A stretch of DNA of 64,000 nucleotides from Chloroflexota bacterium (GCA_031400455.1 JANNPX010000025.1:64345-128344); one strand, 5' to 3'. Shown: positions 37,920-60,934, numbered from the stretch's first letter. Translations and numbers: made by a program. Notes: generated from the letters alone by a model not told the origin.

Positions 37920-37954
37920 TTTGCAGTTCGTGGTTCGTAGTTTGTAGTTCAGGA
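37920..37954. repeat. STRR-like heptamer tandem array (TTYGYRG x5)
   Basis: TTTGCAG TTCGTGG TTCGTAG TTTGTAG TTCAGGA directly after the ldt stop. Confidence 0.8.
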
Positions 37955-38070
37955 CGACCCGTTCGGCCCTTCCGCCTAAGCGCGCGAGCCACAATGCTTA
38001 GTGGCGATTCGCGAGGTCCGGCCCCACCTCCGGTCTCCCACGTCTCATAGCCTCTCAAACAGGAGCGCCC

Positions 38071-39306
38071 ATGTACACCGACCTCAACAAGGAACTCACC
38101 GACGAGCAGAAGATGCTCAAGCAGCGCACGCACGAGTTCGCGGCGCAGGTGCTGCGGCCGGCGGCATGGGAGCTGGACAAACTCACGCCGGAGGAGACGA
38201 TCGCGCAGGGATCGCGGATGCGGGACGTGTTCCGCATCGCCTACGAGCAGGAGTTCCACCTGCGCGGCTTTCCGGAGGCGCTGGGCGGCGCGCATCTCGG
38301 GCCGCTGGAGTCGCACATCGTAAACGAAGAGATGGGCTGGGGCGCATCGGACTTCTCGATCGCGCTCAGCGTCACGTCGTTCCCGTTCTCGTTCGCGTCG
38401 AGCCGCCAAGATCCGGACATGATGCGTGACGTCGTGATGCCGTTTGTGAACGACCGCAAGGGCGAGTACATCGGCTGCTGGGCGATCACCGAGCCGGGCC
38501 ACGGCTCCGATACGCTGATGCCCGGCACGAAGATGTGGACCGATCCGAACATCCACTACGGCCTGACCGCGACCGCCGATGGCGACGACTATGTGCTGAA
38601 CGGCCAGAAGTCGGCTTGGGTCTCGAACGGCACGATCGCTACGCACGCGCTGGCGTTCCTGGGCGTTGAGCGCAAGATGGGCATGGCGGGAGGCGGCGTC
38701 GCGCTGGTGCCGCTCGATCTCGCGGGCGTGTCGAAAGGGCCGCCGCTGAACAAGATCGGCCAGCGCGCGCTGAACCAGGGCGAGATCTTCTTCGACGACG
38801 TGCGGCTGCCGAAGAAGTACATGCTCGTGCCACCGGAGCACTACACCATGGCGATCGATGCGGTGCTGGCCGGAGCGAACGCCTACATGGGCTCGACATT
38901 CACGGGCCTGGCCCGCGCGGCGTTCGAGGAGGCGCTCGAGTACACGAAGAACCGCGTGCAAGGAGGCGTGCCGATCAGCGAGCACCAGCTCGTGCAGAAG
39001 CGGCTCTTCGATATGCACACGAAGGTCGAGACGTCGCGACAGCTCTCGCGCGCGGTGGTGCTGTACAACGAGCACCAGTTCCCGCCCGGCACGCAGTACT
39101 CCATCACGTCGAAGGTCTACTGCACGACGGCGGCATTCGAGGTGGCGAGCGATGCCCTCCAGCTCCACGGCGGCTATGGCCTGACGAAGGAGTTGTTGAT
39201 CGAGAAGCTCTTCCGCGACGCCCGCGCCTCGATGATCGAAGACGGCTCGAACGACATCCTCTCGCTGACCGCCGCGAAGAAGATCCTCGACCAGTACGTG
39301 GTGTGA
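38071..39306 (+). CDS. acyl-CoA dehydrogenase family protein
   Basis: ACAD three-domain architecture with C-terminal QLHGGYG. Confidence 0.85.
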   Translation: MYTDLNKELTDEQKMLKQRTHEFAAQVLRPAAWELDKLTPEETIAQGSRMRDVFRIAYEQEFHLRGFPEALGGAHLGPLESHIVNEEMGWGASDFSIALSVTSFPFSFASSRQDPDMMRDVVMPFVNDRKGEYIGCWAITEPGHGSDTLMPGTKMWTDPNIHYGLTATADGDDYVLNGQKSAWVSNGTIATHALAFLGVERKMGMAGGGVALVPLDLAGVSKGPPLNKIGQRALNQGEIFFDDVRLPKKYMLVPPEHYTMAIDAVLAGANAYMGSTFTGLARAAFEEALEYTKNRVQGGVPISEHQLVQKRLFDMHTKVETSRQLSRAVVLYNEHQFPPGTQYSITSKVYCTTAAFEVASDALQLHGGYGLTKELLIEKLFRDARASMIEDGSNDILSLTAAKKILDQYVV

Positions 39307-39434
39307 GCATAAGAGCGCGAATCGTCAACTTGATTTCGGGCATCGCCGCGGGTGGCCGGTACGTGGGGCGGAAGCGGGCGGCGTAGGCGGGTACTTGACG
39401 CCGCCGTTGTAATGGCTGCCTGATGCACCTACGA

Positions 39435-39459
39435 TCCCTCCACACGCTAGATGGAGGGA
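39435..39459 (+). promoter_or_regulatory. hairpin sequestering the RBS of the downstream gene
   Basis: TCCCTCC-(11 nt)-GGAGGGA. The right arm is the GGAGGG RBS 5 nt before the ATG at 39465. Confidence 0.35.
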
Positions 39460-39464
39460 CTGTC

Positions 39465-40376
39465 ATGCACACATCGAACCGCACCACCAACATCCTGCTG
39501 GTCGTGATGATCGCCGTCGGCTTCGGCATCGTGGCGATGCTCGCGTCGGGCGTGCGGGGAGGGCCGCTCGCCCCGTCAGGGCCACCGGCCTCGACGAGCA
39601 GCGTGCGCCTTCCCGGCACGCCAATCGATCCCCCCTCCAGTCCGGCGAGCTATCCCATTGTCATCTCGGCCCCCGGCCACTACTATCTCACCGGAAATCT
39701 CAATCCTCCCGCCAGCACACGCGCGCTCACCATCAACAGCAGCGATGTCTCACTGGACCTGGGAGGGTTCACTGTCACAGGAAGCGGTAGCGGCCCCGTC
39801 GCGGGCATCCTCGTGTTCGGCGTGCAAACGCGGGTGCGGATCACGAACGGCACCGTCAAGGGCTTCCCTGGCAACGGCATCAGCGCAGTGGGGATCACAC
39901 ATGTCGTCATCGAAGATGTCACGGTCTCCGGGACGGCGATCGGTATTCAGGTCGGTTCGTACAGCGTCGTGCGCAACTGTTCTGCGTCGGAGAACACCGA
40001 GTACGGCATGCTGATCTCGGGAAGCTTCAGCACCATCGACAACTGCATGGTCGAGTCCAATGGTTACCTTGGAGTCTCGCTCCAGAGTGGCAGCGGGCAC
40101 GTTGTGAAGAACTCGACCTTCCGCAACAACGACACTTCGGGGTTGTCGGAGGGCGGAATCAGCTTCAATCAAGTGGACGGCAGTACGGTCCGTGGTAACG
40201 ACTTCTGGGCGAACGTCCCCGTGGACGTGCTGATGAACAGTCTCTCCGACGACAACGTGTTCATCGGTAATACGTTCACTTGCCCCACGGCTCTCACCAA
40301 TTCCGGAAGCAACAACTTCGCTCCAGTGAATACCACCGATCCAGCCACGAACAGGAGCCACAGGACCAGCTGTTGA
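39465..40376 (+). CDS. membrane-anchored right-handed parallel beta-helix repeat protein (pectate-lyase/NosD-like)
   Basis: TM helix then repeated GxxxxNxxxxN-type beta-helix turns (NCSASEN, NCMVESN, NSTFRNN); lower GC. Confidence 0.6.
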   Translation: MHTSNRTTNILLVVMIAVGFGIVAMLASGVRGGPLAPSGPPASTSSVRLPGTPIDPPSSPASYPIVISAPGHYYLTGNLNPPASTRALTINSSDVSLDLGGFTVTGSGSGPVAGILVFGVQTRVRITNGTVKGFPGNGISAVGITHVVIEDVTVSGTAIGIQVGSYSVVRNCSASENTEYGMLISGSFSTIDNCMVESNGYLGVSLQSGSGHVVKNSTFRNNDTSGLSEGGISFNQVDGSTVRGNDFWANVPVDVLMNSLSDDNVFIGNTFTCPTALTNSGSNNFAPVNTTDPATNRSHRTSC

Positions 40377-40608
40377 CGGCTCCTGGCGACAACGATATCG
40401 GGCCGGGTGATCGCGGAACGACACAAGGTAAGTGACGCGTTTCTGATGCACCGCGCACGACTGACGCACAGCGCATAGCCCCGGACATTCGACCCGTATG
40501 TGGCGTAAGCTCCGGCCGATCGCCAAATTCGAAGCTGGTGTCCGCAGGGAACGGCGCTCTCTGCGCGGCGAATCGTCAAGAATTCGCTAATAAGCATATA
40601 TCTGCCTA

Positions 40609-40638
40609 TTGACGCGATAGGGCCCCCTGGCGCATAAT
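40609..40638 (+). promoter_or_regulatory. padR promoter driving a leaderless transcript
   Basis: TTGACG-18-CATAAT ends 6 nt before the ATG. An IR CGCGAT(N17)ATCGCG overlaps the spacer. Confidence 0.45.
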
Positions 40639-40644
40639 CGCGGC

Positions 40645-41004
40645 ATGAAGCGAAAAGCCGGAGCACTCCTGTCGATCGAGATCGCCATCCTGCAGGCTGG
40701 CATCGCCATGCTGCGCGGCAGCGATCCCGAGTTCCACGGATACGCCATCGCACGGGAGATGCGAGACCAGGAAGGCGCTCGCAGCCTCACGGCCCATGGC
40801 ACGCTGTACCGGGCGCTGGAGCGCCTCGAGATCCGCGGGCTGCTGGCGTCGCGGTGGGAGGACCCGGAGATCGCTGCGGCCGAAGAGCGCCCGCGTAGGC
40901 GGATGTATCGCGTGACTGCCGAAGGCGAGGCGGCGGTGCAAGCCGTCGGGGAGCCGGCGACGGCCCCCGCGAAAGCCCTCAAGCGCGGACTGGCGGCGTC
41001 ATGA
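40645..41004 (+). CDS. PadR family transcriptional regulator
   Basis: Winged HTH GYAIAREMRDQ...LYRALERLEIRGLL. Confidence 0.85.
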   Translation: MKRKAGALLSIEIAILQAGIAMLRGSDPEFHGYAIAREMRDQEGARSLTAHGTLYRALERLEIRGLLASRWEDPEIAAAEERPRRRMYRVTAEGEAAVQAVGEPATAPAKALKRGLAAS

Positions 41005-41987
41005 GCAGCATCACAGCGGGCGGCACGGGCATGAGCGGCATTGCAGGACTGGCCTGTGGCGCGGCGCGCGGTTGGACAGCGGTCTACACGCTGGGACTCG
41101 CGTCGCACGTGCGGGACGCGCGCCGCGCCGAGGTGGCTTCCGACGTGTGGGAGCATCACCGGGACATCATCAGCGAGGGGCGCTCCGTGTGGACGTTCCT
41201 GGGGAGCGTGTTCGGCCGTGTCGTGCGCGGCGCACCGGCCGACCTGCTGTGGAGAGTGAACGTGGAGGGACCGAAGATGGACATCAAGATTCCGTTCGAG
41301 CGCATCGTTGGAGGATTGCTGCTGGCGATGGTCGTGCTGCTGATGATCACGACATCGATCAGCGGCTACGACACAGGCCGCGAGGGCTTCGATAGCGAGC
41401 TGCGCCGCCTAGCGGGTCTGGGCGACGCTTCCCACAGCGGCAACGCGTTTTCCCGTGCTGTAACGGGCGTCGCGCTGATCGCCGCGGCCGCCGCGCTCTA
41501 CACGAACCTGAAGGATCGTTCGCCGTTGCTGTCCGCGATGGCGGCGTTTGGCATCGCTGCTGCCGGTGTGCTGGCGCTGATCGCCGGTGCACTGCAACTC
41601 GTGTTTGTCGAACTGGCGCAGGAGTACGTGGCATCGAGCGGCGCGCAACAGGAGCAGGTGCTGGTCACCGCGCGAGGCTTCGCGTTGGCGACCGATAATA
41701 CCGTGGGCGCGGCGTTCATCGCGCTGGTCCTGAGCATCTACGTGATGGCGATCCTCGCGGGGCGCGAGGGGCTGGTGCCGCGCTGGCTCATCGGCATCCC
41801 GGTCATCAGCGCCGCGGTCGTCGGAGGGTCGCTCATCGCGGAAGCCGCTGGAGCCGACCTCCAGTGGTGGATCCTGATATCGGGCTTGTTCATGAGCGTG
41901 ATCTGGCTGCTGATTGCGGGTCTGTGGCTGATCTTCACGCCGGGCGAAGGCCGGGCGCCGGCAGCGTCCGGCCGTGCCGCGGCATAG
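41001..41987 (+). CDS. integral membrane protein (PadR-associated, DUF4386-like)
   Basis: Multiple TM helices; start overlaps the padR stop. Confidence 0.55.
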   Translation: MSSITAGGTGMSGIAGLACGAARGWTAVYTLGLASHVRDARRAEVASDVWEHHRDIISEGRSVWTFLGSVFGRVVRGAPADLLWRVNVEGPKMDIKIPFERIVGGLLLAMVVLLMITTSISGYDTGREGFDSELRRLAGLGDASHSGNAFSRAVTGVALIAAAAALYTNLKDRSPLLSAMAAFGIAAAGVLALIAGALQLVFVELAQEYVASSGAQQEQVLVTARGFALATDNTVGAAFIALVLSIYVMAILAGREGLVPRWLIGIPVISAAVVGGSLIAEAAGADLQWWILISGLFMSVIWLLIAGLWLIFTPGEGRAPAASGRAAA

Positions 41988-41996
41988 GAGGGCAAG

Positions 41997-42095
41997 ATGA
42001 ACGACACATCAGCGAGGGCTGCGTTGGTCCTGGGGCTGACTGCGGTAATCCTCGCAGCGCTGACCGCCGTCGCAGTGGTGGGCCTGCCTCATTAG
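41997..42095 (+). CDS. 32-aa single-TM peptide
   Basis: MNDTSARAALVLGLTAVILAALTAVAVVGLPH; strong GGAGGG RBS 5 nt upstream; absent from the track (under 60 aa). Confidence 0.35.
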   Translation: MNDTSARAALVLGLTAVILAALTAVAVVGLPH

Positions 42096-42169
42096 TCGTG
42101 TATGGCGTCTGACGCGCCTCTGGCATACTCAATCGCCGGGGAGGCCGAAAGGACGCCGCTCGCGACGCT

Positions 42170-43393
42170 ATGACGCTACCACGGCCTGCGCCTCCCGCCC
42201 CGATCCGTATTCTCGTCCGTCCGCTGCAGGAGTTTCTCGCCACGGAAACCGCCGGCGGTGCGCTGCTGCTCGTCGCGGCGGCCGTTGCGCTGTTCTGGGT
42301 GAATGCGCCGTTCGGCGGGACGTACGGCGACTTCTGGGGCACGCGCGTAGCCATCGATCTCGGCATCGTCGATCTGGATGTGACGCTCGGTGCGTGGGTG
42401 AACGATGCGCTGATGGCGGTCTTCTTCTTCGTGGTCGGGCTGGAGATCAAGCGCGAAGTGCTGGTCGGCGAACTCGCGGCGCGGCGGCGTGCGGCGCTGC
42501 CCGTGTTCGCCGCGCTGGGCGGCATGATCGTGCCGGCGTTGGTCTTCCTCGCGTTCAACCTTGGCGGCGACGGCGAGCGCGGATGGGGCATACCCATGGC
42601 CACCGACATCGCGTTCGCCGTCGGTGTGCTGTCGCTCGCTGGATCGCGCGTGCCGACGTCGCTGAAGGTGTTCCTGCTCGCACTGGCGATCGTCGACGAT
42701 CTGGGTGCGATCGCCGTCATCGCTGTCTTCTACACCGACTCGATCGCGCCGGGTTGGTTGATCGCGGCCGCCGGGTTGTTCGTGTTGACGCTTGTGCTCG
42801 GTCGAATGGGCGCGCGCAACGTCTTCGTCTATCTCGGTGTTGGCGTTGTCGCCTGGCTGGCGGTACACGAGTCGGGTGTGCATGCGACGATCGCCGGCGT
42901 CGTGATGGGGCTGCTGATGCCGGTCGAGCATGGCGCTCGCGAGGAGCAGGGGGCGTCCGTACTCGACAGGCTCGAGCACCTGCTGCATCCATGGACGAGC
43001 TTGGTCGTCATCCCGATCTTCGCGCTGGCGAACGCTGGCATCGCCATCGATGGCGGCGTCGTGCGCGATGCCGCGTCGTCGCCCGTTTCGCTGGGTGCGG
43101 CGCTTGGGTTGATGCTCGGAAAGCCGATCGGCATCACGCTGTTCGCGCTACTCGCCGTCAAGCTGGGAATCGCCGCGCTCCCCGATGATGTGCGCTGGCC
43201 GCAACTCGCCGCGGTCAGCATGGTTGCCGGCATCGGCTTCACGGTGTCAATCTTCGTCACCGGGCTCGCCTTCACCGATGCCGCGCTCGTGAACGATGCC
43301 AAGATCGGCATCCTTGTCGGATCGGCGATCATCGGAGTGCTGGGGCTGTTGATGATCCGCTTCTTGCCCGCTGCCGGAGATCCGGTCGCCTGA
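42170..43393 (+). CDS. nhaA: Na+/H+ antiporter NhaA
   Basis: NhaA family TM pattern with conserved DD in LALAIVDDLGAI. Confidence 0.85.
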   Translation: MTLPRPAPPAPIRILVRPLQEFLATETAGGALLLVAAAVALFWVNAPFGGTYGDFWGTRVAIDLGIVDLDVTLGAWVNDALMAVFFFVVGLEIKREVLVGELAARRRAALPVFAALGGMIVPALVFLAFNLGGDGERGWGIPMATDIAFAVGVLSLAGSRVPTSLKVFLLALAIVDDLGAIAVIAVFYTDSIAPGWLIAAAGLFVLTLVLGRMGARNVFVYLGVGVVAWLAVHESGVHATIAGVVMGLLMPVEHGAREEQGASVLDRLEHLLHPWTSLVVIPIFALANAGIAIDGGVVRDAASSPVSLGAALGLMLGKPIGITLFALLAVKLGIAALPDDVRWPQLAAVSMVAGIGFTVSIFVTGLAFTDAALVNDAKIGILVGSAIIGVLGLLMIRFLPAAGDPVA

Positions 43394-43480
43394 GCCGCAT
43401 CAATCGCCTCTCCCCCGCTGGAAGCTGGCGCGCCGGTGGCGTAGGCTATGCCAAACGGGCACAACTCACGTGGAGGCGGC

Positions 43481-44593: not shown

Positions 44594-44775
44594 TGGCGCC
44601 CTCACCCGTCGCCTTCGGCGCCACCCTCTCCACCAAGGGGAGAAGGACCGGGGATCGGCTACAGCGACAGCGACGGGATTTTCGATCACACGGCGATCGG
44701 CCGCCCGTAAAGGCGCAACCTGTTGCGCCCTCGTTCGTGCGCGTCGATCGTTCTACTCCCGCCCCATCCTTCTCA

Positions 44776-44840
44776 TCTGAGGGAGAGGAACGACCGCCAC
44801 GAGAACATCGCCCATCCCTCTCCCCCTGAGGGAGAGGGAC
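44776..44840. repeat. CTGAGGGAGAGG direct repeats and CCCTCTCCC/GGGAGAGGG hairpin
   Basis: Two copies of CTGAGGGAGAGG. The second forms a 10-bp perfect stem TCCCTCTCCC-cctga-GGGAGAGGGA. Confidence 0.7.
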
Positions 44841-44908
44841 AGCGGAGCCGTCAGGCGACGCAGGGTGAGGGCCCGCCCCAAGACCATAAGCCCACGCGCG
44901 GATACACT

Positions 44909-44943
44909 CGACTACCCACTACGAACTACCAACTACGAACTAG
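44909..44943. repeat. STRR-like heptamer array, reverse orientation (CTACRAA-type x5)
   Basis: CGACTAC CCACTAC GAACTAC CAACTAC GAACTAG, then GGAGCCCCCC-ATG of the ACAD gene. Confidence 0.8.
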
Positions 44944-44954
44944 CGGAGCCCCCC

Positions 44955-47154: not shown

Positions 47155-47709
47155 TCATACCGGCTGCAGCCGCTCCGCGGCCGCCGCGCCTGACGGCGCC
47201 TTGACGCGGATGGCGTCGCCGGGGCGGACGGTGCCGCCTTCGAGCACGATTGCCATGATGCCGGCTTTGCGGGTGATGCTGCCGTCGTCGGCTTTCATCG
47301 CCACTTGCTGGAGCAGTCGCTCGTCGACGCCATTGAGCTGCGCGCAGGGGTTGCGGACGCCCGTCACTTCGATGATGGCGCTGTCGCCGAGATAGAGCTT
47401 CGTGCCGGGCGCGAGATCGAGGATCGCGAGGCCGCGCGTCGTGATGTTCTCGCCCATCGCGCCGGGCGTGACCGTGATGCCGATGGCGGCCATCTCGTCG
47501 AACAGCTCGGAGTGCATCAGGTGCACCTGGCGGATGTTCGGCAGGTCGGGCGTCGCCGCCGCGCGGCTGCGGTGCCGCACCTTCGCTCCGGCGTGGTAGT
47601 CGCCCTCGACGCCGTGGCCGGCGATGAGCATCACGCTCTCGCGCGGGATCTTGCCGACGCCCGGCGTCTCTTTACTGTTGACGGAGATGATGGTGGGTGT
47701 GGACTTCAC
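47155..47709 (-). CDS. MOSC domain-containing protein
   Basis: GHGVEGDYHAG and a beta-barrel MOSC pattern; start either the GTG at 47709 or an internal ATG. Confidence 0.75.
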   Translation of the reverse strand: MKSTPTIISVNSKETPGVGKIPRESVMLIAGHGVEGDYHAGAKVRHRSRAAATPDLPNIRQVHLMHSELFDEMAAIGITVTPGAMGENITTRGLAILDLAPGTKLYLGDSAIIEVTGVRNPCAQLNGVDERLLQQVAMKADDGSITRKAGIMAIVLEGGTVRPGDAIRVKAPSGAAAAERLQPV

Positions 47710-47760
47710 AGTTTGCGGTTCACAGTTTGCAGTTCGTGGTGGGTGGTTGGTAGTTCGTAG
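47705..47760. repeat. STRR-like heptamer array (x8)
   Basis: TTCACAG TTTGCGG TTCACAG TTTGCAG TTCGTGG TGGGTGG TTGGTAG TTCGTAG abutting the MOSC start. Confidence 0.8.
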
Positions 47761-47786
47761 CTTAGCAGGCGGCTCGTGGAGAGGAC

Positions 47787-47847
47787 GTAGGGACGCACCT
47801 TCAGGTCCGTCCCGAACCGCCGGACGGAGCTAAAGCTGCGTCCCTAC
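47787..47847. other. nested hairpin structure
   Basis: GTAGGGACGCA ... TGCGTCCCTAC (11-bp perfect) enclosing GTCCGTCC...GGACGGAG. Confidence 0.5.
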
Positions 47848-47968
47848 GGTCTGCGTTTCGTACGTCTTGCGCGGATACGAGAACGCCGCCAGGAGCCCGC
47901 GCTACGCACGGAGATGGAGCCTGCATGGAGACGATGCTTCCGCTTCGCTCTGCATGACAGGCGGCGTG

Positions 47969-48880: not shown

Positions 48881-48888
48881 GGGGGGAG

Positions 48889-48923
48889 TTTACAGTTTGT
48901 AGTTTGTAGTTCACAGTTGGACG
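48889..48923. repeat. STRR-like heptamer array (x5)
   Basis: TTTACAG TTTGTAG TTTGTAG TTCACAG TTGGACG. On the gene strand it reads ...AACTCCCCCC-ATG(thyX). Confidence 0.8.
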
Positions 48924-49015
48924 GCGGTCAGCGTGTCAGCCAATCAGGCCGTCAGCGCGTGAGCAGCAGCGCCTCCCGGCGAAGCAGTGCTAGGCGACGT
49001 AACGGAGGACCCGGG

Positions 49016-49108
49016 CTGAAAGCCCGCGCTACCGAAGAAGGTGGCTACTGAAAGCCCGCGCCCACAGAAGATGCTACGGCTGAGAGGCTGACTAGCTGAC
49101 CCGCTACG
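49016..49108. repeat. direct repeats CTGAAAGCCCGCGC (x2) and octamer array NNGCTGAC
   Basis: 49016-29 and 49048-61 are identical. AGGCTGAC TAGCTGAC CCGCTACG overlaps the peptidase stop. Confidence 0.75.
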
Positions 49109-51816: not shown

Positions 51817-54288
51817 TCACGCGGACGCTTTGGCCAGCTCGGGCTCGTCGGCCGATTCGTCGACGGGGCCCTTCCACTCGCACTTCGTGCATTTCGCCTC
51901 ACTCTTGCCCGCCATGACGACGAGGCCGGCGCAGTCCGGGCAGGGTTGCTTCAGCGGGCGCGTATTGCTCGTGAAGTCACAGGCAGGATACTTCTCGCAC
52001 CCGTAGAAGGTGCGCGCGCGGCCCCGGCGCGTCTTGCGCTCGATGATCTCGCCGCCATCCTTCGGGCAAAGTACGCCGATCTTCTGCGCGATCGAGCGTC
52101 GCGTCTTGCACTCTGGATACTGCGTGCACTCGAGGAACTGGCCGAACGGGCCGCGCTTGCTCACCATGGGCGACTCGCAAACCGGGCACTTCTCGTCGGT
52201 GGGCTGCGGTTCGGGCGCGGCGTCCTCGCCCAGCGGGCGGGAGCTCTTGCAGTCGGGAAATCCGCTGCACGCGAGGAACTGGCCGAAGCGCCCCCAGCGG
52301 ACGATCATCGGCTTGCCGCACTTCTCGCACTTCTCGTCCGTCTGCTGCTCGACGCGGGGAACGTCGACGACCCGCCCGAGCGCGAGTTCCAGCGGATCGT
52401 AGAACTCTTGGACGACGGTCGGCCAGGCGCGCTCGCCGTTGGCCACGTCGTCGAGTTCGTCTTCCATGCGCGCGGTGAAGCCCACGTCCACGACTTCCGG
52501 GAAGTGCTCCGTCAGCATGTCGCTGACGATGAATCCCAACTCCTCCGGCTTCAGTGCGCGTCCATCCTTCAGCACGTAGTTGCGGTCTTGAATCGTCGAC
52601 ATGATGGCCGCGTACGTGGACGGGCGGCCGATGCCGTTCTCTTCGAGCGCCTTCACGAGCGTTGCTTCCGTGAAGCGCGGCGGCGGCTCGGTGAAGTGCT
52701 GGTCGGGCGTGACCTGGAGCAGGCGTAGCAGGTCGCGCTCGTTGAGGTCGGGCAGCGTCTTCTCCGCGTCCTCATCGTCGTCGGTGTCCCGGCCCTCGAT
52801 GTAAACCTGCCGGAATCCCGGGAACCGCATGTGGCTGGCGGACGCGCGCAGCAGGTAGGGCGCCGGTTGCGTATCGACGGCCGCGTCGATTTCGGCGCTG
52901 ACCTGGTCGAACACAGCGTCCGCCATCTGGCACGCGAGGAACCGCTGCCAGATGAGCGTGTAGAGTTTGGCCTGGTCACCCGTCAACGACTTGCTCAGAC
53001 TCGCAGGGTCGCGGAAGGCCGATGTCGGACGGATCGCTTCGTGGGCCTCTTGCGCGCCCTTCGACTTCGTCTTGTAGAAGCGCGGTTCGGTCGGCACAAA
53101 GTCCGCGCCGTAGCGCTGCGCGATGGCGCCCCGCACCTCGTTGCGCGCGGTCTCTGCGATGTTCAGCGAGTCGGTGCGCATGTAGGTGATGAGACCGACC
53201 TGACCCTGGCCCGGTACCTTCAACCCTTCGTAGAGCTGCTGCGCAACGGCCATCGTGCGCTTGGCCGAGAACCCGAAGCGGCGTGAGGCTTCCTGCTGCA
53301 GCGTGCTCGTCGTGAACGGCGGCGAGGGCCGGCGCAACTGCTGCTTCTTCTTCACGTCGCGCACGCTGTAGGCCGCGCGCCGCAGATCGGCGGTGATCGT
53401 CTGCGCTTGTTCGCCCGTGCCGATTTCGGCCTTCTTCGTGCCGGGCAGGCCGGCGAGACGTGCGGCAAACGCCTGGCCGTCGGCGTCCGCCTGCTTGGCG
53501 AGTTGCGTCTCGATCGTCCAGTACTCCTGCGGCACGAATGCCTGGATCTCGCGCTCGCGGTCGACGACCATCTTCAACGCAGGCGACTGTACGCGGCCCG
53601 CGCTCAGCCCGCGGCGGATCTTGCTCCAGAGCACGGGGCTGATCTTGTAGCCGACGAGGCGGTCGAGGACGCGGCGTCCCTGCTGGGCGTCGACGATGCG
53701 CATATCGATCTCGCGCGGGTGCTCAAAGGCCTCGTGGATGGCGTCCGCCGTGATTTCGTGGAACTCGACGCGCTGGTATCCCTTCGTCGCCAGGTCCATC
53801 GCTTCCATGAGGTGCCACGAGATCGCCTCGCCCTCGCGGTCGGGGTCTGTGGCGAGGTAGACCTGCTTCGCGTCCTTGGCGGCAGCCTTGAGCTGCTTGA
53901 CGACTTCCTTCTTGTCCTTCGGGACGATGTAGCGCGGCGCGAAGCTGTCGTCGACGTTGACGCCTAGCTGCGACTTCGGCAGGTCGCGCACGTGGCCGAT
54001 CGAGGCGCGCACATCGTAGTCGCGGCCCAGAATGCTCGAGAGGGTGCGCGCCTTCGCGGGGGACTCGACGATAACGAGCCGCTTGCCCTTGGCGCTACGG
54101 GTCGTCGGCGCGTTGGCGCCAGCTGCCTTTGAGGGCGCCTTCTTCTTCTTGGCAGCCGGCTTCTTTTTGGCGCCCGCCTTCTTGGCAGCCGGCTTCTTCG
54201 CCTTGGGAGGCGCGGGAGCCTTTACCTCTATAGGCGTGATCGCCTGTCCGGTGCCGGTTGGGGCTTCGATGCCCATTTCGTCTGCCAT
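51817..54288 (-). CDS. topA: DNA topoisomerase I with Lys/Ala/Pro-rich N-terminal tail and four C-terminal zinc ribbons
   Basis: TOPRIM LVIVESPAKA and the active-site Tyr region. KAKKPAAKKAGAKKKPAAKKKK tail. Four Cys4 ribbons near the C-terminus. Confidence 0.92.
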   Translation of the reverse strand: MADEMGIEAPTGTGQAITPIEVKAPAPPKAKKPAAKKAGAKKKPAAKKKKAPSKAAGANAPTTRSAKGKRLVIVESPAKARTLSSILGRDYDVRASIGHVRDLPKSQLGVNVDDSFAPRYIVPKDKKEVVKQLKAAAKDAKQVYLATDPDREGEAISWHLMEAMDLATKGYQRVEFHEITADAIHEAFEHPREIDMRIVDAQQGRRVLDRLVGYKISPVLWSKIRRGLSAGRVQSPALKMVVDREREIQAFVPQEYWTIETQLAKQADADGQAFAARLAGLPGTKKAEIGTGEQAQTITADLRRAAYSVRDVKKKQQLRRPSPPFTTSTLQQEASRRFGFSAKRTMAVAQQLYEGLKVPGQGQVGLITYMRTDSLNIAETARNEVRGAIAQRYGADFVPTEPRFYKTKSKGAQEAHEAIRPTSAFRDPASLSKSLTGDQAKLYTLIWQRFLACQMADAVFDQVSAEIDAAVDTQPAPYLLRASASHMRFPGFRQVYIEGRDTDDDEDAEKTLPDLNERDLLRLLQVTPDQHFTEPPPRFTEATLVKALEENGIGRPSTYAAIMSTIQDRNYVLKDGRALKPEELGFIVSDMLTEHFPEVVDVGFTARMEDELDDVANGERAWPTVVQEFYDPLELALGRVVDVPRVEQQTDEKCEKCGKPMIVRWGRFGQFLACSGFPDCKSSRPLGEDAAPEPQPTDEKCPVCESPMVSKRGPFGQFLECTQYPECKTRRSIAQKIGVLCPKDGGEIIERKTRRGRARTFYGCEKYPACDFTSNTRPLKQPCPDCAGLVVMAGKSEAKCTKCEWKGPVDESADEPELAKASA

Positions 54289-54631: not shown

Positions 54632-54652
54632 TCCTCGCGCAGCGAAGCGTCG

Positions 54653-55263: not shown

Positions 55264-55351
55264 TGGCGGAGGGGGTGGGATTCGAACCCACGGTGGTTTG
55301 AGCCACAACCGTTTTCAAGACGGTCTCCATAGTCCACTCGGACACCCCTCC
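55264..55351 (-). tRNA. tRNA-Ser (anticodon UGA), CCA encoded
   Basis: GGAGGGGTGTCCGAGTGG...ACCGT-cTTGAaa-ACGGT...long variable arm...GTGGGTTCGAATCCCAC-CCCTCCGCCA, 88 nt. Confidence 0.9.
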
Positions 55352-55467
55352 GTTCGGTGCAATTGTAGGGGATTGGTCTTCAGTCGTCAGTTGAAGGTCG
55401 TCGGGGGCGGCGTCCGATCGGCTCTGTTACCATGCGCCGTGTTGGCGAACCGCGACGAGTTCCCGCG

Positions 55468-55515
55468 AAGCTGACCCGCTGACAGGCTGACCCGCTGACT
55501 AGCTGAAAGCTACCC
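55468..55515. repeat. octamer tandem array NNGCTGAC x5-6
   Basis: AAGCTGAC CCGCTGAC AGGCTGAC CCGCTGAC TAGCTGAA AGCTACCC, immediately before the GTG of the GT4 gene. Confidence 0.8.
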
Positions 55516-56802
55516 GTGAAGATCTGCTTCCTCATGTACCAGGGCAACATGTACTCGGGCGGGCAGGGCGTATACCTGTTCTACCTGACGCGCGAACTGG
55601 CGCGCATGGGGCACGAGGTGCATGTCATCGCAGGGCCGCCGTACCCGACACTCGATGAGCGCGTGACGACGCACAACGTCACCGACTACAGCTACTGGAC
55701 GTACCACCACTACAAGAAGGACTTCGTCTTCAACCGGCCGCCGCTCAGCTACTTCCACCCGGTCAACCTCTACGACTTCATCTCGACGCGCATCGCCCTG
55801 TCGTCGCTGCTGGCGAACTTCAGCGTGCGGGCGTACTTCAAGCTGCGTGAGCTGGCGCGCGAGCATCGATTCGACGTCGTGCACGACAACCAGACGCTGA
55901 GCTACGGAGTCTGGGCAACGCACGCAAGCGGCTTTCCGCTGGTGGCGACGATCCACCATCCGCTGTCGTACGACCTGAAAAACCAGCTCCGGCAGGCGCG
56001 CTCCACGTACGAGAAGGCACGTCGCATCCTCTGGTCGCCGTGGTACATGCAGGAGTGGACGGCGAAGAGCGTCGACCGCGTGATCGTCGTGTCCGAGACA
56101 TCGCGCGTCGACGTCGAGGAGGCGTTCCAGCTTCCACCCGAGAAGGTGCGCACCGTGTACAACGGCATCGACGTCGACACCTTCCGGCCGCTGCGGGGTG
56201 TCGAGCGCCAGCCCGACAAGCTGCTGTACGTCGGCAACTCCGAGGATCGCAACAAGGGCGCGCGCTACTTCCTCAAGGCGCTCGACATCCTCAAGGACGA
56301 GATTGACTTCCGCGTCACCTTCGTCGACAACGTGAAGCACAACCTGAAGCTGGCGCCGAAGCTGGTCGATGACTACGGCCTGAATTCGCGCGTCGACTTC
56401 ACCGGCCGCATCCCGACGGAAGACCTCGTGCGCCACTACAACGAGGCGAAGCTGCTCGTCACGTCGTCGGTACACGAGGGGTTCGGGCTGCCGCTCGCGG
56501 AGGCGATGTCGTGCGGCACGCCGACCGTCGCGACCGATATCGGCGCGTACCGGGAGATCGTCGAGCACGGCAAGAGCGGCTGGCTGGTGCCGCCGTCCGA
56601 TCCGCGGGCGCTTGCGGACGCGATCCGTATGATGTGGAATGACGTTGGCCTTCGTCAGCGGCTCAGCGAGGGCGGCCGCCAGCGCATCGAGGAGAAGTTC
56701 AACTGGCGGAAGGCCGCCGAGGAGACGCTGGCCGTGTACGAGGAGATAGTCCCGGCCAAACGCCGCACCTTCGCCATGCCGGAACAGGTTCCGGGCGCGT
56801 AG
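55516..56802 (+). CDS. GT4-family glycosyltransferase (GT-B, PimA-like), paralog 1
   Basis: GTG start; MYQGNMYSGGQGVYLFYLTRELARMGHEVHV; C-terminal EX7E-like region. Confidence 0.85.
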   Translation: MKICFLMYQGNMYSGGQGVYLFYLTRELARMGHEVHVIAGPPYPTLDERVTTHNVTDYSYWTYHHYKKDFVFNRPPLSYFHPVNLYDFISTRIALSSLLANFSVRAYFKLRELAREHRFDVVHDNQTLSYGVWATHASGFPLVATIHHPLSYDLKNQLRQARSTYEKARRILWSPWYMQEWTAKSVDRVIVVSETSRVDVEEAFQLPPEKVRTVYNGIDVDTFRPLRGVERQPDKLLYVGNSEDRNKGARYFLKALDILKDEIDFRVTFVDNVKHNLKLAPKLVDDYGLNSRVDFTGRIPTEDLVRHYNEAKLLVTSSVHEGFGLPLAEAMSCGTPTVATDIGAYREIVEHGKSGWLVPPSDPRALADAIRMMWNDVGLRQRLSEGGRQRIEEKFNWRKAAEETLAVYEEIVPAKRRTFAMPEQVPGA

Positions 56803-56817
56803 TTCCAGGTTTTCAAC

Positions 56818-57588
56818 TTGCCCGACAACATCGTCAACGTCGATTTCAAGCGCCACTTCCAAATCGAGCCCGGCGAGCGCGTGCTTGACCTCGGCTGCGG
56901 CAACGGCCGTCACACCATGGAAGCCGCGCGCTACCCCGGGCGTATCGTCGGCCTAGACTTCTCACGCGATGATCTGGTTGCGGCCAAGTTCATGTACGAC
57001 GATATGGTGCGGCAGGGGAAGATCCGCGGCCGCGCCGACTTCATCGTCGGGGACGCCCAGAACCTGCCGTTCAAAGACGGAGCGTTCGACAAGTCTCTCT
57101 GCACCGAGGTCTTCGAGCACATCCCGGACGACCGCCGCGGCATCGCGGAGTTCCTGCGCGTCACGAAGCCTGGCGCGCAGACGGTCGTCAGCATCCCGGC
57201 GTACTGGCCGGAGCGGGCGTACTGGGCGCTGAGTTGGGATTACTGGCACTCGCCGGGCGGACACGTGCGGTGGTACCGTCCGGGGCAGATGCGGCAGATC
57301 CTCGAAGAGAGCGGTATGGATGTCGAGTTCCAGCGGCGGCGGCATTCGTCGCAGAGCTTCTACTGGTTCCTGCGCTGCATCCACGGCCTGCCGAACGAGA
57401 ACTTCTTGCCGGTGCGCCTGACGTGGAAGCTGATCAACGTCCACCACAACCGCCGCCTCAAGCTGCTCGAATACATCGAGACGATCGCGAACCTCGTCAT
57501 CGGCAAGGATCTGATCCACTACGGCCACAAGCGCGGAGCGGCGAAGACGGCCGAGCCGGCGCACGAATTTGCCGGCGTGTCGCGCTAG
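56818..57588 (+). CDS. class I SAM-dependent methyltransferase, paralog 1
   Basis: VLDLGCGNGRH and LPFKDGAFD; TTG start. Confidence 0.8.
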   Translation: MPDNIVNVDFKRHFQIEPGERVLDLGCGNGRHTMEAARYPGRIVGLDFSRDDLVAAKFMYDDMVRQGKIRGRADFIVGDAQNLPFKDGAFDKSLCTEVFEHIPDDRRGIAEFLRVTKPGAQTVVSIPAYWPERAYWALSWDYWHSPGGHVRWYRPGQMRQILEESGMDVEFQRRRHSSQSFYWFLRCIHGLPNENFLPVRLTWKLINVHHNRRLKLLEYIETIANLVIGKDLIHYGHKRGAAKTAEPAHEFAGVSR

Positions 57589-57605
57589 CTCGCGAGGCTC
57601 CACGA

Positions 57606-59000
57606 ATGACCATCCAGAACGCGAGGCGCCTGCCATCTTCGGCGGAGATGACCGAGCGGTTGCAGTCGTGGATCGAGCGCTTTCGCGTTACCGGCGCGTC
57701 GATCGCTTGGATGCACGGCGACGAGGTCGCGACCGCTGCGGCGGGCGCAATTAACCTGAACACGGGCGTCGACGTCACGCAGGATACGCTGTTTCAGATC
57801 GGCTCGATTACCAAGATCTACACGACGACGCTGATCATGCAGCTCGTGGATGAAGGGCGGATCGAACTCGACGCGCCGGCGACGAATTACCTTCCCGAAC
57901 TGAGGTTCGGCAACGGAACAGCGTCGCGCACAGTCACAATCCGCCAGTTGCTCACGCACACGAGCGGCGTTGATGGCGACTTCTTCGACGACTTCGGGCG
58001 TGGCGACGATTGTGTTGAGAAGTACGTGGCTGCGTGCGGGAACCTGCCGGAGGTCTTCCCGGCCGGCACCATGTGGTCGTACTGTAATGCCGGCTTCGTG
58101 GTGCTTGGGCGCATCGTCGAGTTGATGACCGGCATGAACTGGGACGCCGCACTCAAGACGCGCATCCTCGACCCGATTGGCGCGTCCCACACTGTCACGC
58201 TTCCCGAGGTGGCGCTGTTGCACCGCACGTCTGTTGGACATGGATTCAACCTATCGCTACAGATCGAGCGCAGCCCGTACTGGAATCTCGCGCGTGCCGC
58301 CGGACCGGCAGGAGCTACTCCGTGCGCAACGGCGGCGGATCTGCTGACGTTCGCGAAAGTGCACATCGACGGCGGCGTTGCCGTAGGCGGCGCGCGCGTC
58401 CTGTCCGAAGCGTCCGTCCGGGCGATGCAGCAGTCGCAGTTCGACCTGCCGCGGGTGCCCGGTGAGGGAGCAGCGCACTGGGGACTCGGCTGGATGCTGT
58501 TCGACTGGGACGGGCGCCGAGTCATCGGCCACGACGGCGGTACGATCGGCCAGCTCTCGTCTCTGCGCATCCTGCCCGAGGAGCGCTTCACCGTTGCTGT
58601 CCTGACCAACACGACCCCAACGGGCGGGTTGCTCGGTAGCCGTGTCATGCGCTGGCTGTTCGAAGAGACGCTTGGCATCGAGATGCCGGCGCGGCCGAAG
58701 CCACCGGAATCGCCGGTAGAGATGGATGTGCGACCTTACGCCGGCGTGTACGAGCGGCTCGGGCTGCGCGTGGACATAGCGGAGAAGGACGGTCAGCTGT
58801 CGGCGAAGTACACGGGCAGCGGTGCGCTCTCGGATCTTCAAATCGATCAGCCGCCATACGACCTGATACCGGTCGAGCACGGGCTATTCGTCGAGAGGAA
58901 CCCATACACGGGGACGTACGCTCCCGTGACGTTCAGTGGATTTGAGAACGGGCGTCCGCGCTTTATAGAAGCGACACGCGTCGCACGGCGCGTAGGCTAG
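57606..59000 (+). CDS. serine hydrolase, beta-lactamase/transpeptidase fold (class C / esterase-like)
   Basis: SxxK motif IGSITKIY and later YxN/HxG-like elements; start trimmed to the ATG at 57606. Confidence 0.8.
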   Translation: MTIQNARRLPSSAEMTERLQSWIERFRVTGASIAWMHGDEVATAAAGAINLNTGVDVTQDTLFQIGSITKIYTTTLIMQLVDEGRIELDAPATNYLPELRFGNGTASRTVTIRQLLTHTSGVDGDFFDDFGRGDDCVEKYVAACGNLPEVFPAGTMWSYCNAGFVVLGRIVELMTGMNWDAALKTRILDPIGASHTVTLPEVALLHRTSVGHGFNLSLQIERSPYWNLARAAGPAGATPCATAADLLTFAKVHIDGGVAVGGARVLSEASVRAMQQSQFDLPRVPGEGAAHWGLGWMLFDWDGRRVIGHDGGTIGQLSSLRILPEERFTVAVLTNTTPTGGLLGSRVMRWLFEETLGIEMPARPKPPESPVEMDVRPYAGVYERLGLRVDIAEKDGQLSAKYTGSGALSDLQIDQPPYDLIPVEHGLFVERNPYTGTYAPVTFSGFENGRPRFIEATRVARRVG

Positions 59001-59043
59001 CTCCCTGCGTCGGCGCGCCGCAATCCGCTACCATGCCCCCGAT

Positions 59044-60489
59044 ATGGTGTCCACGCTCGACCGCTTCCAGTCCATCGATCCCGCGCTGCTCGATATCGGG
59101 CCCGCGGATCGCGTCATCGATCTGGGCTGCGGCACGGGGCGTCACGTGCTGGAACTTTCGAAGATCCCGGCCGACATCATCGGCGCTGACATCTCGCGCA
59201 CCGATATCCGCGCCGGGCGCTACCTGCTCGAGATCATGCGGCGACGCGACGAAGTGAAGGCGCGCGTCCACTGGCTGCAGACGGCGGGGGAGCGGCTGCC
59301 GTTCAAGGATGGCGCCTTCGACCGCGTCATCTGCACCGAGACGCTGGAGCACGTCGACGACGAACACGTGCTGGCGCGCGAGCTGGCTCGCGTGCTCAAG
59401 CCAGGGGGCATCCTGGCGATCAGCGTGCCAGACGAGTACTCCGAGAAGGTGTTCTGGAAGCTGTCGAAGAACTACCGCACGCATGCTGGTGGGCATGTCC
59501 GCATCTTCGGCCGCAGTGAGATCGTGCGCCTCATGCGCACATCCGGGCTGGAGCCGTACGCCGTTCGCTATCGTCACTCGCTCGAGACGGTGTACTGGCT
59601 CAGCCACGTCGCGTTCTGGAGCGACTGGGGCAAGCAGGGGCCGATCACCAGCGCCTTCCGCCGCATCCTCGACTCGCAGCGGGCGCGCGCATCCGGCATC
59701 GTCACCGCGCTCGATGACATCGGCAACCGCATCCTGCCGAAGAGCATCGTCGTATACAGCCGCAAACCGCTGCAAGGCGCGTCGCGCAACGGCGCGAGCA
59801 CCAACGGACACAGCCTCGTCGATATCGACGAGCGCACGAAGGTGGAAGTGCGAGCCGTACCAGCGCCGTTCGCCATCGATCCGGGCGCGCCGGTTGTCAC
59901 GGGTGACATCCCCGCGACCGCATTCTCATTGAAGGACGAACTGCGCATCGCGCTCAAGCTCGATCCGGAGCCGCAGAAGGCGCGGCTGATCGAGCTGCTG
60001 CGCTCGTGCCGCTTCAGCATGATGCGCGAAGTGCAGGCGCTCAGCGGCGAGCAAGCGTCGACGCCGTGGACGCCCGACGGCCGCTCGATGAAGGAGATTG
60101 TCGGGCACATCACGGGGTGGGAACGCTGGGCGACGGCCGCCCTCGATCAGATCGCGACGGGCGTCTCGGAGCCGTCCATCATGTCGCTCAGCGGCTACCC
60201 GGAGGGCATCCGCCGCTACGGTTCGGTCGAGGCGTTCAACGCCGCGCGCATGGGCGAAGCGCGCGAACAGCCATGGGCGGAGATCCTCGAGCAGAGCGAC
60301 GCGATCTTCGACGCACTGATCGCCGCAGCCGAACGTACGCCAGCCACGTCGCTATCACAGACCGCCGATTTCTTCTGGCCGGATCTCGGTGGGACGGTCC
60401 CTTGTGGCATGTATCTGCTGATGGTCTCCGCGTACCACTACCAGGAGGAACATCTGCCAGAGGTTGTCGGGCGAGTTGGTAGTTCGTAG
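59044..60489 (+). CDS. fusion: class I SAM methyltransferase (paralog 2) + C-terminal ClbS/DfsB-like (DUF1706) four-helix-bundle domain
   Basis: N-terminus: VIDLGCGTGRH and LPFKDGAFD. C-terminus: IVGHITGWERW ... AYHYQEEH. The stop TAG lies inside the heptamer array. Confidence 0.65.
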   Translation: MVSTLDRFQSIDPALLDIGPADRVIDLGCGTGRHVLELSKIPADIIGADISRTDIRAGRYLLEIMRRRDEVKARVHWLQTAGERLPFKDGAFDRVICTETLEHVDDEHVLARELARVLKPGGILAISVPDEYSEKVFWKLSKNYRTHAGGHVRIFGRSEIVRLMRTSGLEPYAVRYRHSLETVYWLSHVAFWSDWGKQGPITSAFRRILDSQRARASGIVTALDDIGNRILPKSIVVYSRKPLQGASRNGASTNGHSLVDIDERTKVEVRAVPAPFAIDPGAPVVTGDIPATAFSLKDELRIALKLDPEPQKARLIELLRSCRFSMMREVQALSGEQASTPWTPDGRSMKEIVGHITGWERWATAALDQIATGVSEPSIMSLSGYPEGIRRYGSVEAFNAARMGEAREQPWAEILEQSDAIFDALIAAAERTPATSLSQTADFFWPDLGGTVPCGMYLLMVSAYHYQEEHLPEVVGRVGSS

Positions 60490-60510
60490 TTGGCAGTTAG
60501 TAGTTCTTTG
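60476..60510. repeat. STRR-like heptamer array (left flank of the 4HB gene)
   Basis: TTGGTAG TTCGTAG TTGGCAG TTAGTAG TTCTTTG. Confidence 0.8.
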
Positions 60511-60529
60511 GTGCTGAGTTGGATGATGC

Positions 60530-60892
60530 GTGCAGGACTATAAGAAGCTCAAAGTGTGGGAGAAATCGCACGCGCTGACGCTCGCGGTCTACCGCGCCAC
60601 AAGCAAGTTCCCCAAGCACGAACAGTACGGGCTCGTCAGCCAACTGCAGCGCTGCTCCAGTTCCGTGCCGTCGAATATTGTCGAAGGTTGCGGCCTCAAC
60701 ACGAAGCCCGAACTTCTCAAGCATTTGCACTATGCGATGGGCTCGGCGAAAGAGATGGAATACCAGCTGCTACTTGCGAAGGACCTCGGCTACGTTCCGA
60801 ATGCGGCGTACGAATTGCTTGCGAAGGATGTGGACGAAGTCGAACGCATGCTCTCCGCCCTGATCTCGACGATCCGCCGAGGCAGCGCGTAG
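60530..60892 (+). CDS. four-helix-bundle protein (23S rRNA intervening-sequence protein / Avd-like family)
   Basis: WEKSHALTL...QLQRCSSSVPSNIVEG...GSAKEMEYQLLLAKDLGY is the typical signature of this family. GTG start. Markedly lower GC. Confidence 0.8.
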   Translation: MQDYKKLKVWEKSHALTLAVYRATSKFPKHEQYGLVSQLQRCSSSVPSNIVEGCGLNTKPELLKHLHYAMGSAKEMEYQLLLAKDLGYVPNAAYELLAKDVDEVERMLSALISTIRRGSA

Positions 60893-60899
60893 CGTGGAA

Positions 60900-60934
60900 G
60901 AACTACAAACCACAAACTACGAACTACAAACTCC
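60900..60934. repeat. STRR-like heptamer array, inverted orientation (right flank of the 4HB gene)
   Basis: GAACTAC AAACCAC AAACTAC GAACTAC AAACTCC, the reverse complement of the left-flank type. Confidence 0.8.

Follow-up and report, generated by a model that had tools for sequence, protein, structure and literature searches.

Six arrays of tandem degenerate heptamers are located within a stretch of 64,000 nucleotides from a Chloroflexota bacterium (GCA_031400455.1, JANNPX010000025.1:64345-128344; hereafter, the window), and two of them enclose a gene for the 23S rRNA intervening-sequence protein (IVP, also referred to as S23p). An earlier reading of this DNA from its letters only (the sequence-only reading) had listed six such arrays. 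The same six sites were recovered by Tandem Repeats Finder (TRF), by a search for AGTT/AACT cores at 7-nt spacing, for which shuffled sequence gave a mean of 0.005 runs, and by a core-free test of period 7 (at least 20 self-matches out of 28), which returned precisely six regions in 64 kb, all of them arrays (Table 1). Periods 6, 8, and 9 gave one or two regions each in the same self-match test. The units take the form GTAGTTY or RCAGTTY on one strand, equal to AACTACN or AACTGYN on the other, and those seen in the window include AACTACG, AACTACA, AACTACC, AACCACG, AACTGCA, and AACTGTG. All six arrays are confined to 37.9-60.9 kb, with none in the first 37 kb of the window.

Table 1. Heptamer arrays, the IVP gene, and related repeats in the window (positions are counted from the first nucleotide of the window)
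Feature	Position	Strand	Description	TRF region of period 7
Array 1	37913..37952	+	~(GTAGTTY-like)x5, trailer orientation	37916-37950
Array 2	44904..44946	+	(NNACTAC)x5, AACT leader orientation	44918-44942
Array 3	47705..47760	-	~8 units, leader orientation	47705-47735
Array 4	48884..48921	-	5 units, leader orientation	48894-48911
Array 5	60470..60510	+	5' arm of cassette stem	60474-60506
IVP gene (S23p, 23S rRNA intervening-sequence protein)	60530..60892	+	120 aa, four-helix bundle; in the loop between the arms	
Array 6	60896..60939	+	3' arm of cassette stem	60901-60932
Second heptamer hairpin	48926..49101	-	arms (NGTCAGC)x3 and (GCTGANN)x3-4, 132-nt geneless loop	
Period-8 array	55468..55508	+	GCTGACCC GCTGACAG GCTGACCC GCTGACTA GCTGAAAG; GCTGA family, leader position	

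Every array is located at a gene boundary, as the sequence-only reading had it: all six lie at ends of open reading frames (ORFs), and two stop codons and one start codon fall within units. On the sense strand of the adjacent gene, four arrays present AACT before starts and two present AGTT across stops. Array 1 overlaps the TAG stop (37917-37919) of ldt, the L,D-transpeptidase gene (36507-37919; Pfam YkuD), which forms the last bases of a degenerate TGGGTAG unit. The gene next to it, ACAD (acyl-CoA dehydrogenase) at 38071, starts 120 nt further on; no partner arm of array 1 was found, just a weak 14-nt inverted repeat nearby. Array 2 is followed by GGAG, CCCCCC, and the ATG (44955) of an ACAD gene. 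The last unit of array 3, AACTGTG, holds the GTG start of MOSC (47709) on the minus strand, and array 4, also read on the minus strand, runs AACTGTG AACTACA AACTACA AACTGTA AACTCCCCCC and then into the ATG of thyX (48880). These two arrays flank thyX in the same orientation and bracket it, as had been proposed, with direct copies. Array 5 (AGTTGGT AGTTCGT AGTTGGC AGTTAGT AGTTCTT) includes the TAG stop (60487-60489) of a methyltransferase-DinB/DUF1706 gene (MT), closing a TTCGTAG unit, and both this stop and that of ldt bear out the notion of repeat units that serve as stop codons. Array 6 (AACTACA AACCACA AACTACG AACTACA AACTCCC) reaches the N-terminal coding sequence of a GT4 glycosyltransferase gene (GT4-2). 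The succession of array, C-run, and ATG, proposed for four genes, was found at ACAD (44955) and thyX (48880); it fails at MOSC, with its GTG inside a unit, and at GT4-2, whose ATG at 60954 is probably internal (see below).

Other signals were scarce at these sites. A search of the window with Rfam at gathering thresholds returned tRNA-Ser only, no rRNA, and nothing at the arrays, and promoter and terminator scans of 44-62 kb gave sites not above those of shuffles, none at arrays. At the free unit positions of the AACT strand, C was in slight excess over G (121 vs 88), and the idea of a G-poor unstructured leader was dropped because this excess is slight.

Two features of the 60470-60939 region go beyond the sequence-only reading, namely the gene between arrays 5 and 6 and the relationship of these two arrays, which are reverse complements of each other and form a stem of about 35 bp around the whole IVP ORF. 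The gene product was matched by PF05635 (E 1.9e-36, 124.9 bits, cut-off 33.8), TIGR02436 (E 3e-35, 120.7 bits, cut-off 24), and PDB 2GSC (Xanthomonas XCC0516, five chains in the entry; E 1.5e-19), and IVP has been described as a homopentamer (PMC4990558). In the minimum free energy fold of 60466-60945 (-179.7 kcal/mol, z -2.8), nucleotides 60469-60510 are paired with 60900-60936, and the ungapped complementarity score of the two arms is 19.5-24. The cassette occupies the whole spacer, from the MT stop inside the left arm to the GT4 coding sequence. Two properties of the intervening sequences (IVS) of rRNA are present, an ORF of PF05635/TIGR02436 and an enclosing inverted-repeat stem of at least 20 bp, and insertion into 23S rRNA is absent. 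Since the flanking genes are those for MT-DinB/DUF1706 and GT4, the element is an IVS-like cassette in a protein-coding operon and not in rRNA. It does not qualify as a diversity-generating retroelement (DGR): matches to models of the DGR protein Avd stayed below cut-off (bAvd, 24.6 bits, cut-off 40; NF033474, 33.3 bits, cut-off 80), and no reverse transcriptase was found among the annotated genes of 55.5-62.2 kb, where the neighbours are MT and GT4.

The right arm of the cassette probably belongs to the coding sequence of GT4-2. The conserved N-terminal motif KIAFI lies upstream of ATG 60954, and an in-frame GTG (60894) is located 1 nt past the IVP stop; the gene caller picks the same start in an orthologous locus, L213 (other loci are referred to by such numbers). 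In L125, L214, and L215, ATG AAR directly follows the array, at the position of CTC AAA in the window. At the place of the GT4 ATG, the window, L123, and L213 have CTC or CTA, together with an in-frame GTG 1 nt after the preceding stop. From these comparisons, the GT4 gene of the window is probably without the ATG of its ancestral position, and ATG 60954 is probably not its start. Given the conserved KIAFI upstream of ATG 60954 and the in-frame GTG 60894, array 6 is probably translated from this GTG as a short N-terminal extension. The predicted translation of array 6 is VEELQTTNYELQTPL, ahead of the conserved KIAFIMYQGN.

For ThyX as well as the methyltransferase, the best homologs come from metagenome-assembled genomes (MAGs) of Chloroflexota or Dehalococcoidia. 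The MT-IVP-GT4 cassette was present in all eight orthologous loci examined (L123, L125, L211, and L213-L217), and it is kept down to 76% identity of the methyltransferase, including the complete Chloroflexia MAG OY969567.1. A search of these eight loci for an MT-GT4 junction without the cassette gave none. The two arms co-vary among orthologs: in L214, the variable part of the unit has changed in both arms, which pair with each other at a score of 16.5 vs 6-11.5 for cross-pairing with arms of other orthologs. Units are also gained or lost, as seen from a one-unit difference in the right arm between the near-identical loci L215 and L216. Across the cassette, the window is matched base for base by L001 and L002, which are short assemblies independent of each other. 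Solo arrays, those without a partner arm, are less uniform in their evolution. The MOSC leader array is orthologous in L204 (AACTATG at the start), with a conserved 5' edge and diverged internal units. In L123 (1860-2020), the IVP stop is followed by an AACT array, a 60-nt copy of the IVP 3' end including TAG, a second AACT array, and GT4; this arrangement appears to have been left when one cassette copy replaced another or recombined with it.

The architecture is general for this IVP. A total of 80 metagenomic loci that encode relatives of the window IVP were retrieved with a two-sequence IVP alignment, so that one IVP subfamily was sampled. Among the 76 loci with usable flanks, complementary left and right flanks were detected in 64 (score at least 12; 95th percentile of the control, 10), and a strong period-7 signal on both flanks in 49 (control maximum, 19). 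The loci contain 103 period-7 arrays, and other periods within 5-11 give 0-5 each. The density of arrays is 4.06 per kb within 200 nt of the IVP ends vs 0.066 per kb elsewhere in the same loci. The unit types vary by locus, with AGTTCGT in the closest relatives and mostly NNTNAGC types (AGCAATC, TTAGCNN) in the rest, and the arms match within a locus, the median score being 19 for own-arm pairing vs 8.5 for cross-locus pairing. The stop of the upstream ORF lies between -28 and +21 nt from the left arm (37 of 51 loci) and the start of a co-directional downstream ORF between -12 and +20 nt from the right arm (28 of 54). The IVP gene of this subfamily is almost always inside arrays.

Related cassettes were found at other gene junctions. 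In six loci (L182, L185, L195, L199, L201, and L202), one is located in the spacer upstream of topA, with the upstream stop codon inside or just before the first heptamer; the upstream gene appears, from its C-terminal sequence, to be dprA. Xanthomonas (L206, L207, L209, and L210; ~1424-1872) provides a cultured and independent example, in which orthologs of the crystallised XCC0516 separate accB from accC and are enclosed by inverted arrays of GGGAATC. Their left arm (GGGAATC GGGAGTG GAGAATC GGGAATC) begins 6 nt past the accB stop, and the right arm (ATTCCCC ATTCTCG ACTCCCT ATTCCC) abuts the accC ATG. Both arms are of the GGGAATC family, which Rehm et al. (PMC4692102) investigated for its G-quadruplexes. 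In addition, 18 IVP genes have been noted inside cas operons, for example between cmr3 and cmr2 (Zhang et al., PMC3936711), which fits a cassette placed between cistrons.

The occurrence of the repeats was followed in a scan of genomes, one for each species, for AGTT occurring four times at 7-nt intervals. At least 120 loci were obtained, and the matches listed are mostly from Cyanobacteria, Bacteroidota, Acidobacteriota, Planctomycetota, Verrucomicrobiota, and Chloroflexota; five of them (L035, L078, L103, L113, and L104) have an IVP gene beside or between arrays, and the first four of these count as independent examples of the cassette architecture. (AGTTNNN)n was also found, among the matches listed, in the STRR-rich Nostoc, Calothrix, and Microcoleus, and this and the exclusive period of 7 in the window agree with an STRR-like family that uses a different unit, as the sequence-only reading had suggested. 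The three classical STRR units are CCCCAGT, TTGGTCA, and CAACAGT, and in L011 an (AGTTGAC)n array adjoins CAACAGT repeats. AGTTATC, the reverse complement of TAACTGA, was the second commonest unit among the matches listed, including a Parabeggiatoa locus. The arrays are not limited to the window, which covers 64 kb of a 128.8-kb contig, and relatives carry them at orthologous as well as other junctions, such as two outside the syntenic region in L204 (at 16353 and 17220). The first of these (16353-16394) is a stop-free AACT-type array followed directly by ATG, between two adh_short domains merged as a 559-aa product. An inverted (GGATGGA)n/(TCCATCT)n pair in L203 (10376-10459) is located inside a single annotated gene for glycine-cleavage P-protein and probably marks the boundary of two cistrons. 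A solo array, that is, one without a partner arm, is located in L083, about 1 Mb from the IVP cassette L214 of the same genome (OY969567.1), and the units AACTGTG and AACTGAC occur in both; these shared units hint that unit types are homogenised genome-wide.

Polarity was counted for 143 arrays among the genome-scan matches listed and, independently, for 138 arrays from viral contigs. Tabulated against the neighbouring gene, as the sequence-only reading had recommended, the orientation is strongly biased near starts: an ATG of an ORF of at least 80 codons was found within 20 nt downstream 29 times on the AACT strand vs 5 times on the AGTT strand in genomes, and 38 vs 7 times in viral contigs. 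A long ORF ends at the 5' edge 64 times on the AGTT strand vs 24 on the other strand in genomes (59 vs 37 in viral contigs). One strand therefore faces starts and its complement follows stops in a fixed orientation relative to the neighbouring gene. When arrays are paired no more than 800 nt apart, the order AGTT-then-AACT was counted 48 times and the reverse twice in genomes (46:2 in a re-count), and the ratio in viral contigs was 25:6. Loop length in paired arrays falls into two classes, 1-132 nt (with a single further loop of 240 nt) and 389-480 nt, of which the second fits the spacing at IVP cassettes. Of the 55 stems at such cassettes, 41 have a 5' arm of AGY type and four have the opposite type there. 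Because a plain hairpin is indifferent to the order of its arms, this polarity represents a real constraint.

Among published repeats, TAACTGA (PMC4679880) and GGGAATC/GGGGAYT (PMC4692102) come nearest to the arrays, ahead of the three classical STRR units, which resemble them as tandem, highly iterated, intergenic heptamers. No window unit is identical to a published one (CCCCAGT, TTGGTCA, CAACAGT, TAACTGA, or GGGAATC), and with TAACTGA the AACT core alone is in common. The TAACTGA repeats of marine Beggiatoaceae and others are likewise tandem heptamers with an AACT core, mostly intergenic; most of them point forward and stand a few nt before a start codon, and Cyanobacteria and Bacteroidetes have them as well (MacGregor 2015, PMC4679880). 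It has been proposed that they are bound by a post-transcriptional regulator, play a role in translation, or have a repeat-binding protein that is a mobile element; one inverted pair is given among 170 sets, and S23p is unmentioned (PMC4679880). In contrast to TAACTGA, the three non-core positions vary from unit to unit in the window (ACG, ACA, ACC, GCA, GTG), the host is a GC-rich Chloroflexota, and two of the arrays enclose a gene as inverted arms. The Xanthomonas GGGAATC and Nostoc GGGGAYT repeats are similar in the intergenic location of arrays, the stop/start polarity, and the varying length at a kept position. Read on the coding strand, repeats of GGGAATC type run over stop codons; most are transcribed, and each Xanthomonas genome has 70-75 convergent inverted pairs of them. 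No tie to mobile elements was found, and a four-helix-bundle gene goes unmentioned (PMC4692102). That unit is G-rich and has been studied as a G-quadruplex former, whereas the window units are unable to form G-quadruplexes.

The IVS of rRNA in Coxiella and Leptospira shares with the cassette an ORF of the same family inside terminal inverted repeats, with a stem of about 28-35 bp. In the 23S IVS of Coxiella, three or four tandem GACAGAT heptamers precede the S23p ORF, and RNase III cuts the 28-bp terminal stem at the first of them; the heptamer copy number differs among strains, and the ORF is decaying (Warrier et al. 2016, PMC4990558). Also in common with the cassette are tandem heptamers of varying copy number from the stem base to the ORF start, and an ORF that may decay with the RNA element staying. 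The rRNA element is inserted in helix 45 of 23S rRNA, whereas the window element is located between two protein-coding genes and its arms consist entirely of heptamers; RNase III cleavage, demonstrated for the rRNA IVS, is an analogy for the window. The relationship of IVP to the nucleic-acid-binding DGR protein Avd (PMC4990558, PMC10053308) is reflected here in the four-helix-bundle fold, homologous between the two, and in weak matches to bAvd and the NCBIfam Avd model; a pair of template and variable repeats was not noted. Literature searches for S23p genes with flanking heptamers returned the Coxiella IVS paper (PMC4990558) only, and the searched literature contained no general link of heptamer arrays to S23p genes outside rRNA.

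The reading that we prefer, with a probability of about one half, is that the arrays bring a new unit and a new lineage to the known class of polar, boundary-hugging tandem heptamers, and that one pair of them forms an IVS-like hairpin cassette. The (AGTTNNN)n strand follows or crosses the upstream stop, and an array is solo or paired in the order 5'-AGTT arm...AACT arm-3', a pair being able to fold into a stem of 25-40 bp. The repeats with their polarity, the complementarity and co-variation of the arms, the recurrence of the architecture, and the turnover of units are observed, whereas the roles in processing and translation are inferred. Action on the transcript is the most likely. The cassette would be co-transcribed with its host operon, and upon pairing of the arms in RNA the upstream stop and the downstream start would meet at the stem base. 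RNase III might then cut the stem, so that the IVP message is released and the downstream cistron keeps the AACU half as its 5' leader. AACU arrays that stand alone may serve as Shine-Dalgarno-independent leaders or be bound where ribosomes load; solo AGUU arrays would be the matching trailers, and the arrays would expand and contract by slippage.

Several observations weigh against this reading. It is by analogy with the rRNA IVS that cleavage of the window stem by RNase III is suggested. The mismatches in 55 non-redundant stems include 46 G·U vs 51 A·C, and with no G·U excess, selection at the level of sense RNA is not demonstrable and maintenance at the DNA level is equally possible; after this wobble test, sense RNA is not claimed as the selected form. 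The period of 7 and the fixed order of the arms are left unaccounted for. In L211 (~4560) and L212, a 1-nt deletion of IVP relative to the window and L213 leaves a called fragment of 51 aa between intact arms, and this frameshift is either a recent pseudogene or an assembly error common to the two assemblies. The thyX leader reads (AACTACA)5 in the window, (AGTCAGC)5 in L203, and (TAGCCAC)4 in L204, and this replacement by unrelated heptamers among ThyX proteins of 91-95% identity speaks against a conserved gene-specific role. Four of the six window arrays have neither a partner arm nor an adjoining IVP remnant. A sensitive profile search of the spacers beside all solo arrays and of the whole window returned one IVP gene only (others, E > 1), and the lack of IVP remnants there ruled out solo arrays as relics of IVP cassettes. 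No relative of the IVP subfamily of the window was found in viral contigs, and no IVP gene in about 1 Mb of array-bearing viral loci, and the idea that phages carry the cassette was dropped. The absence of remnants at solo arrays and of IVP in viral loci makes the arrays the more general element and the IVP gene an occasional occupant.

Four other explanations were considered, each of them improbable in our estimate. The arrays might be a neutral by-product, that is, functionless repeats grown by slippage, an origin of heptamers attributed to Mrazek 2007 as cited in PMC4692102, and tolerated in short spacers. In favour of this account are a rapid turnover, seen in the wholly different thyX leaders of the window, L203, and L204, the one-unit difference between L215 and L216, the degenerate units, and the presence of arrays in viral contigs without IVP genes. 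Neutral growth is, however, hard to reconcile with arrays about 60-fold denser at IVP flanks than in other spacers of the same loci, with the strict arm order (48:2) and the orientation bias at starts (29:5 and 38:7), and with co-varying arms and an MT-IVP-GT4 cassette kept to 76% protein identity.

A second possibility, to which we likewise give little credence, is that a nucleic-acid-binding protein recognises the arrays and acts in trans on the adjacent gene, through its translation or the fate of its mRNA, as has been suggested for TAACTGA, the candidate binder being the pentameric, toroidal IVP/S23p with one heptamer per subunit. The arrays are located in the ribosome-loading region just before start codons (cf. 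PMC4679880), the IVP gene is the only gene systematically tied to them, and the arrays of the window and its orthologs are mostly of about five units, to be compared with five chains in 2GSC and a homopentameric, Avd-related IVP (PMC4990558, PMC10053308). The units common to the distant loci L083 and L214 of OY969567.1 (AACTGTG and AACTGAC) also point in this direction. Yet unit sequences vary within one array and one genome, array length elsewhere ranges from two to more than 20 units (our scan; PMC4679880), and arrays occur with an apparent IVP pseudogene between intact arms in L211/L212 and without IVP in viral contigs.

The third is that the arrays are DNA-level ends of a mobile cassette, with arms as terminal inverted repeats or attC-like hairpins and solo arrays as scars or landing pads at points of insertion or rearrangement. 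The same IVP subfamily is found at MT-GT4, at dprA-topA (six loci), and at accB-accC, and IVP is reported in cas operons (PMC3936711) and 23S rRNA (PMC4990558); the partial second IVP 3' end with a second array in L123, a break of synteny right after thyX in L203, and the absence of a G·U bias, which fits pairing at the DNA level, are also in its favour. It is nevertheless a poor candidate, because the annotated genes beside the arrays and the cassette include no transposase, integrase, or reverse transcriptase, neither a target-site duplication nor an empty site was observed, the cassette has been inherited vertically at one junction over a long divergence, and solo arrays have no IVP remnants beside them. 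Phase variation, in which the unit number would tune the downstream gene as with heptamers in the 5' regions of Haemophilus influenzae hmw, is highly improbable: unit number does differ between L215 and L216 and among Coxiella strains (PMC4990558), and an RNase III-targeted element of the 5' untranslated region is reported to be required for heptamer-dependent phase variation in H. influenzae (PMC12721329), but degenerate units suppress slippage, L001 and L002 are identical to the window across the cassette, and the neighbours are housekeeping or metabolic genes (thyX, ACAD, MOSC, GT4) and not surface antigens.

Further repeats are located near the arrays. The second heptamer hairpin starts 3 nt past the prepilin-peptidase stop and ends just before array 4, and AGC-type units like its own flank most IVP genes of the metagenomic loci. 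From the end of the period-8 array it is 7 nt to GTG 55516, at which the first GT4 gene starts. A strong hairpin at 47786-47848, with 27-nt arms (CGTAGGGACGCACCTTCAGGTCCGTCC / GGACGGAGCTAAAGCTGCGTCCCTACG; 89% complementary) and a 9-nt loop, is found in the interval from the thyX stop to array 3; being without a U-tract, it is not a classical terminator. A shorter hairpin with a similar initial GTAGGG is located downstream of an AGTT array in a Vicinamibacterales locus (L037). The spacer of 316 nt that precedes array 2 contains, at 44624-44838, inverted repeats that are imperfect and rich in CCCTCTCC / GGGAGAGG, with 32-nt arms of 78% complementarity plus shorter ones, and these may be another repeat family. 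A tRNA-Ser(TGA) gene (55264-55351, minus strand) is located between topA and the GT4 cluster, and the 5' part of topA (54142-54199) contains 3.4 copies of an 18-nt tandem repeat, CTTCTTCTTGGCAGCCGG.

The boundary heptamers are abundant in several large phyla, and the S23p/IVS family is very common and its structure solved, and the literature compared here assigns a function to neither. The two are tied by one architecture, in the order stop codon, arm, S23p gene, complementary arm, and start codon, from Chloroflexota to Xanthomonas, echoing the rRNA IVS. A tentative extension, unlikely as we judge it, is that IVP (S23p/TIGR02436, a toroidal pentamer) is the trans-acting partner of the arrays, and that STRR, TAACTGA, GGGAATC, AACTACN, and the rRNA IVS are one widespread system, in which operon transcripts would be punctuated by heptamer stems and leaders. 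The loop-encoded protein would attach to some five units, or make use of the units or spread them in another way. If true, this would give a function to two features that have been without one since their first descriptions, which are cited as those of the Calothrix PCC7601 heptamers (in PMC4692102) and of the IVS by Ralph & McClelland 1993 (in PMC3936711). For annotation, stop-free arrays make gene callers fuse or extend ORFs, as with GT4 here and the two adh_short genes in L204. Where cas or other operons seem to contain an S23p gene, this may be a hitch-hiking cassette and not a functional partner of the operon.

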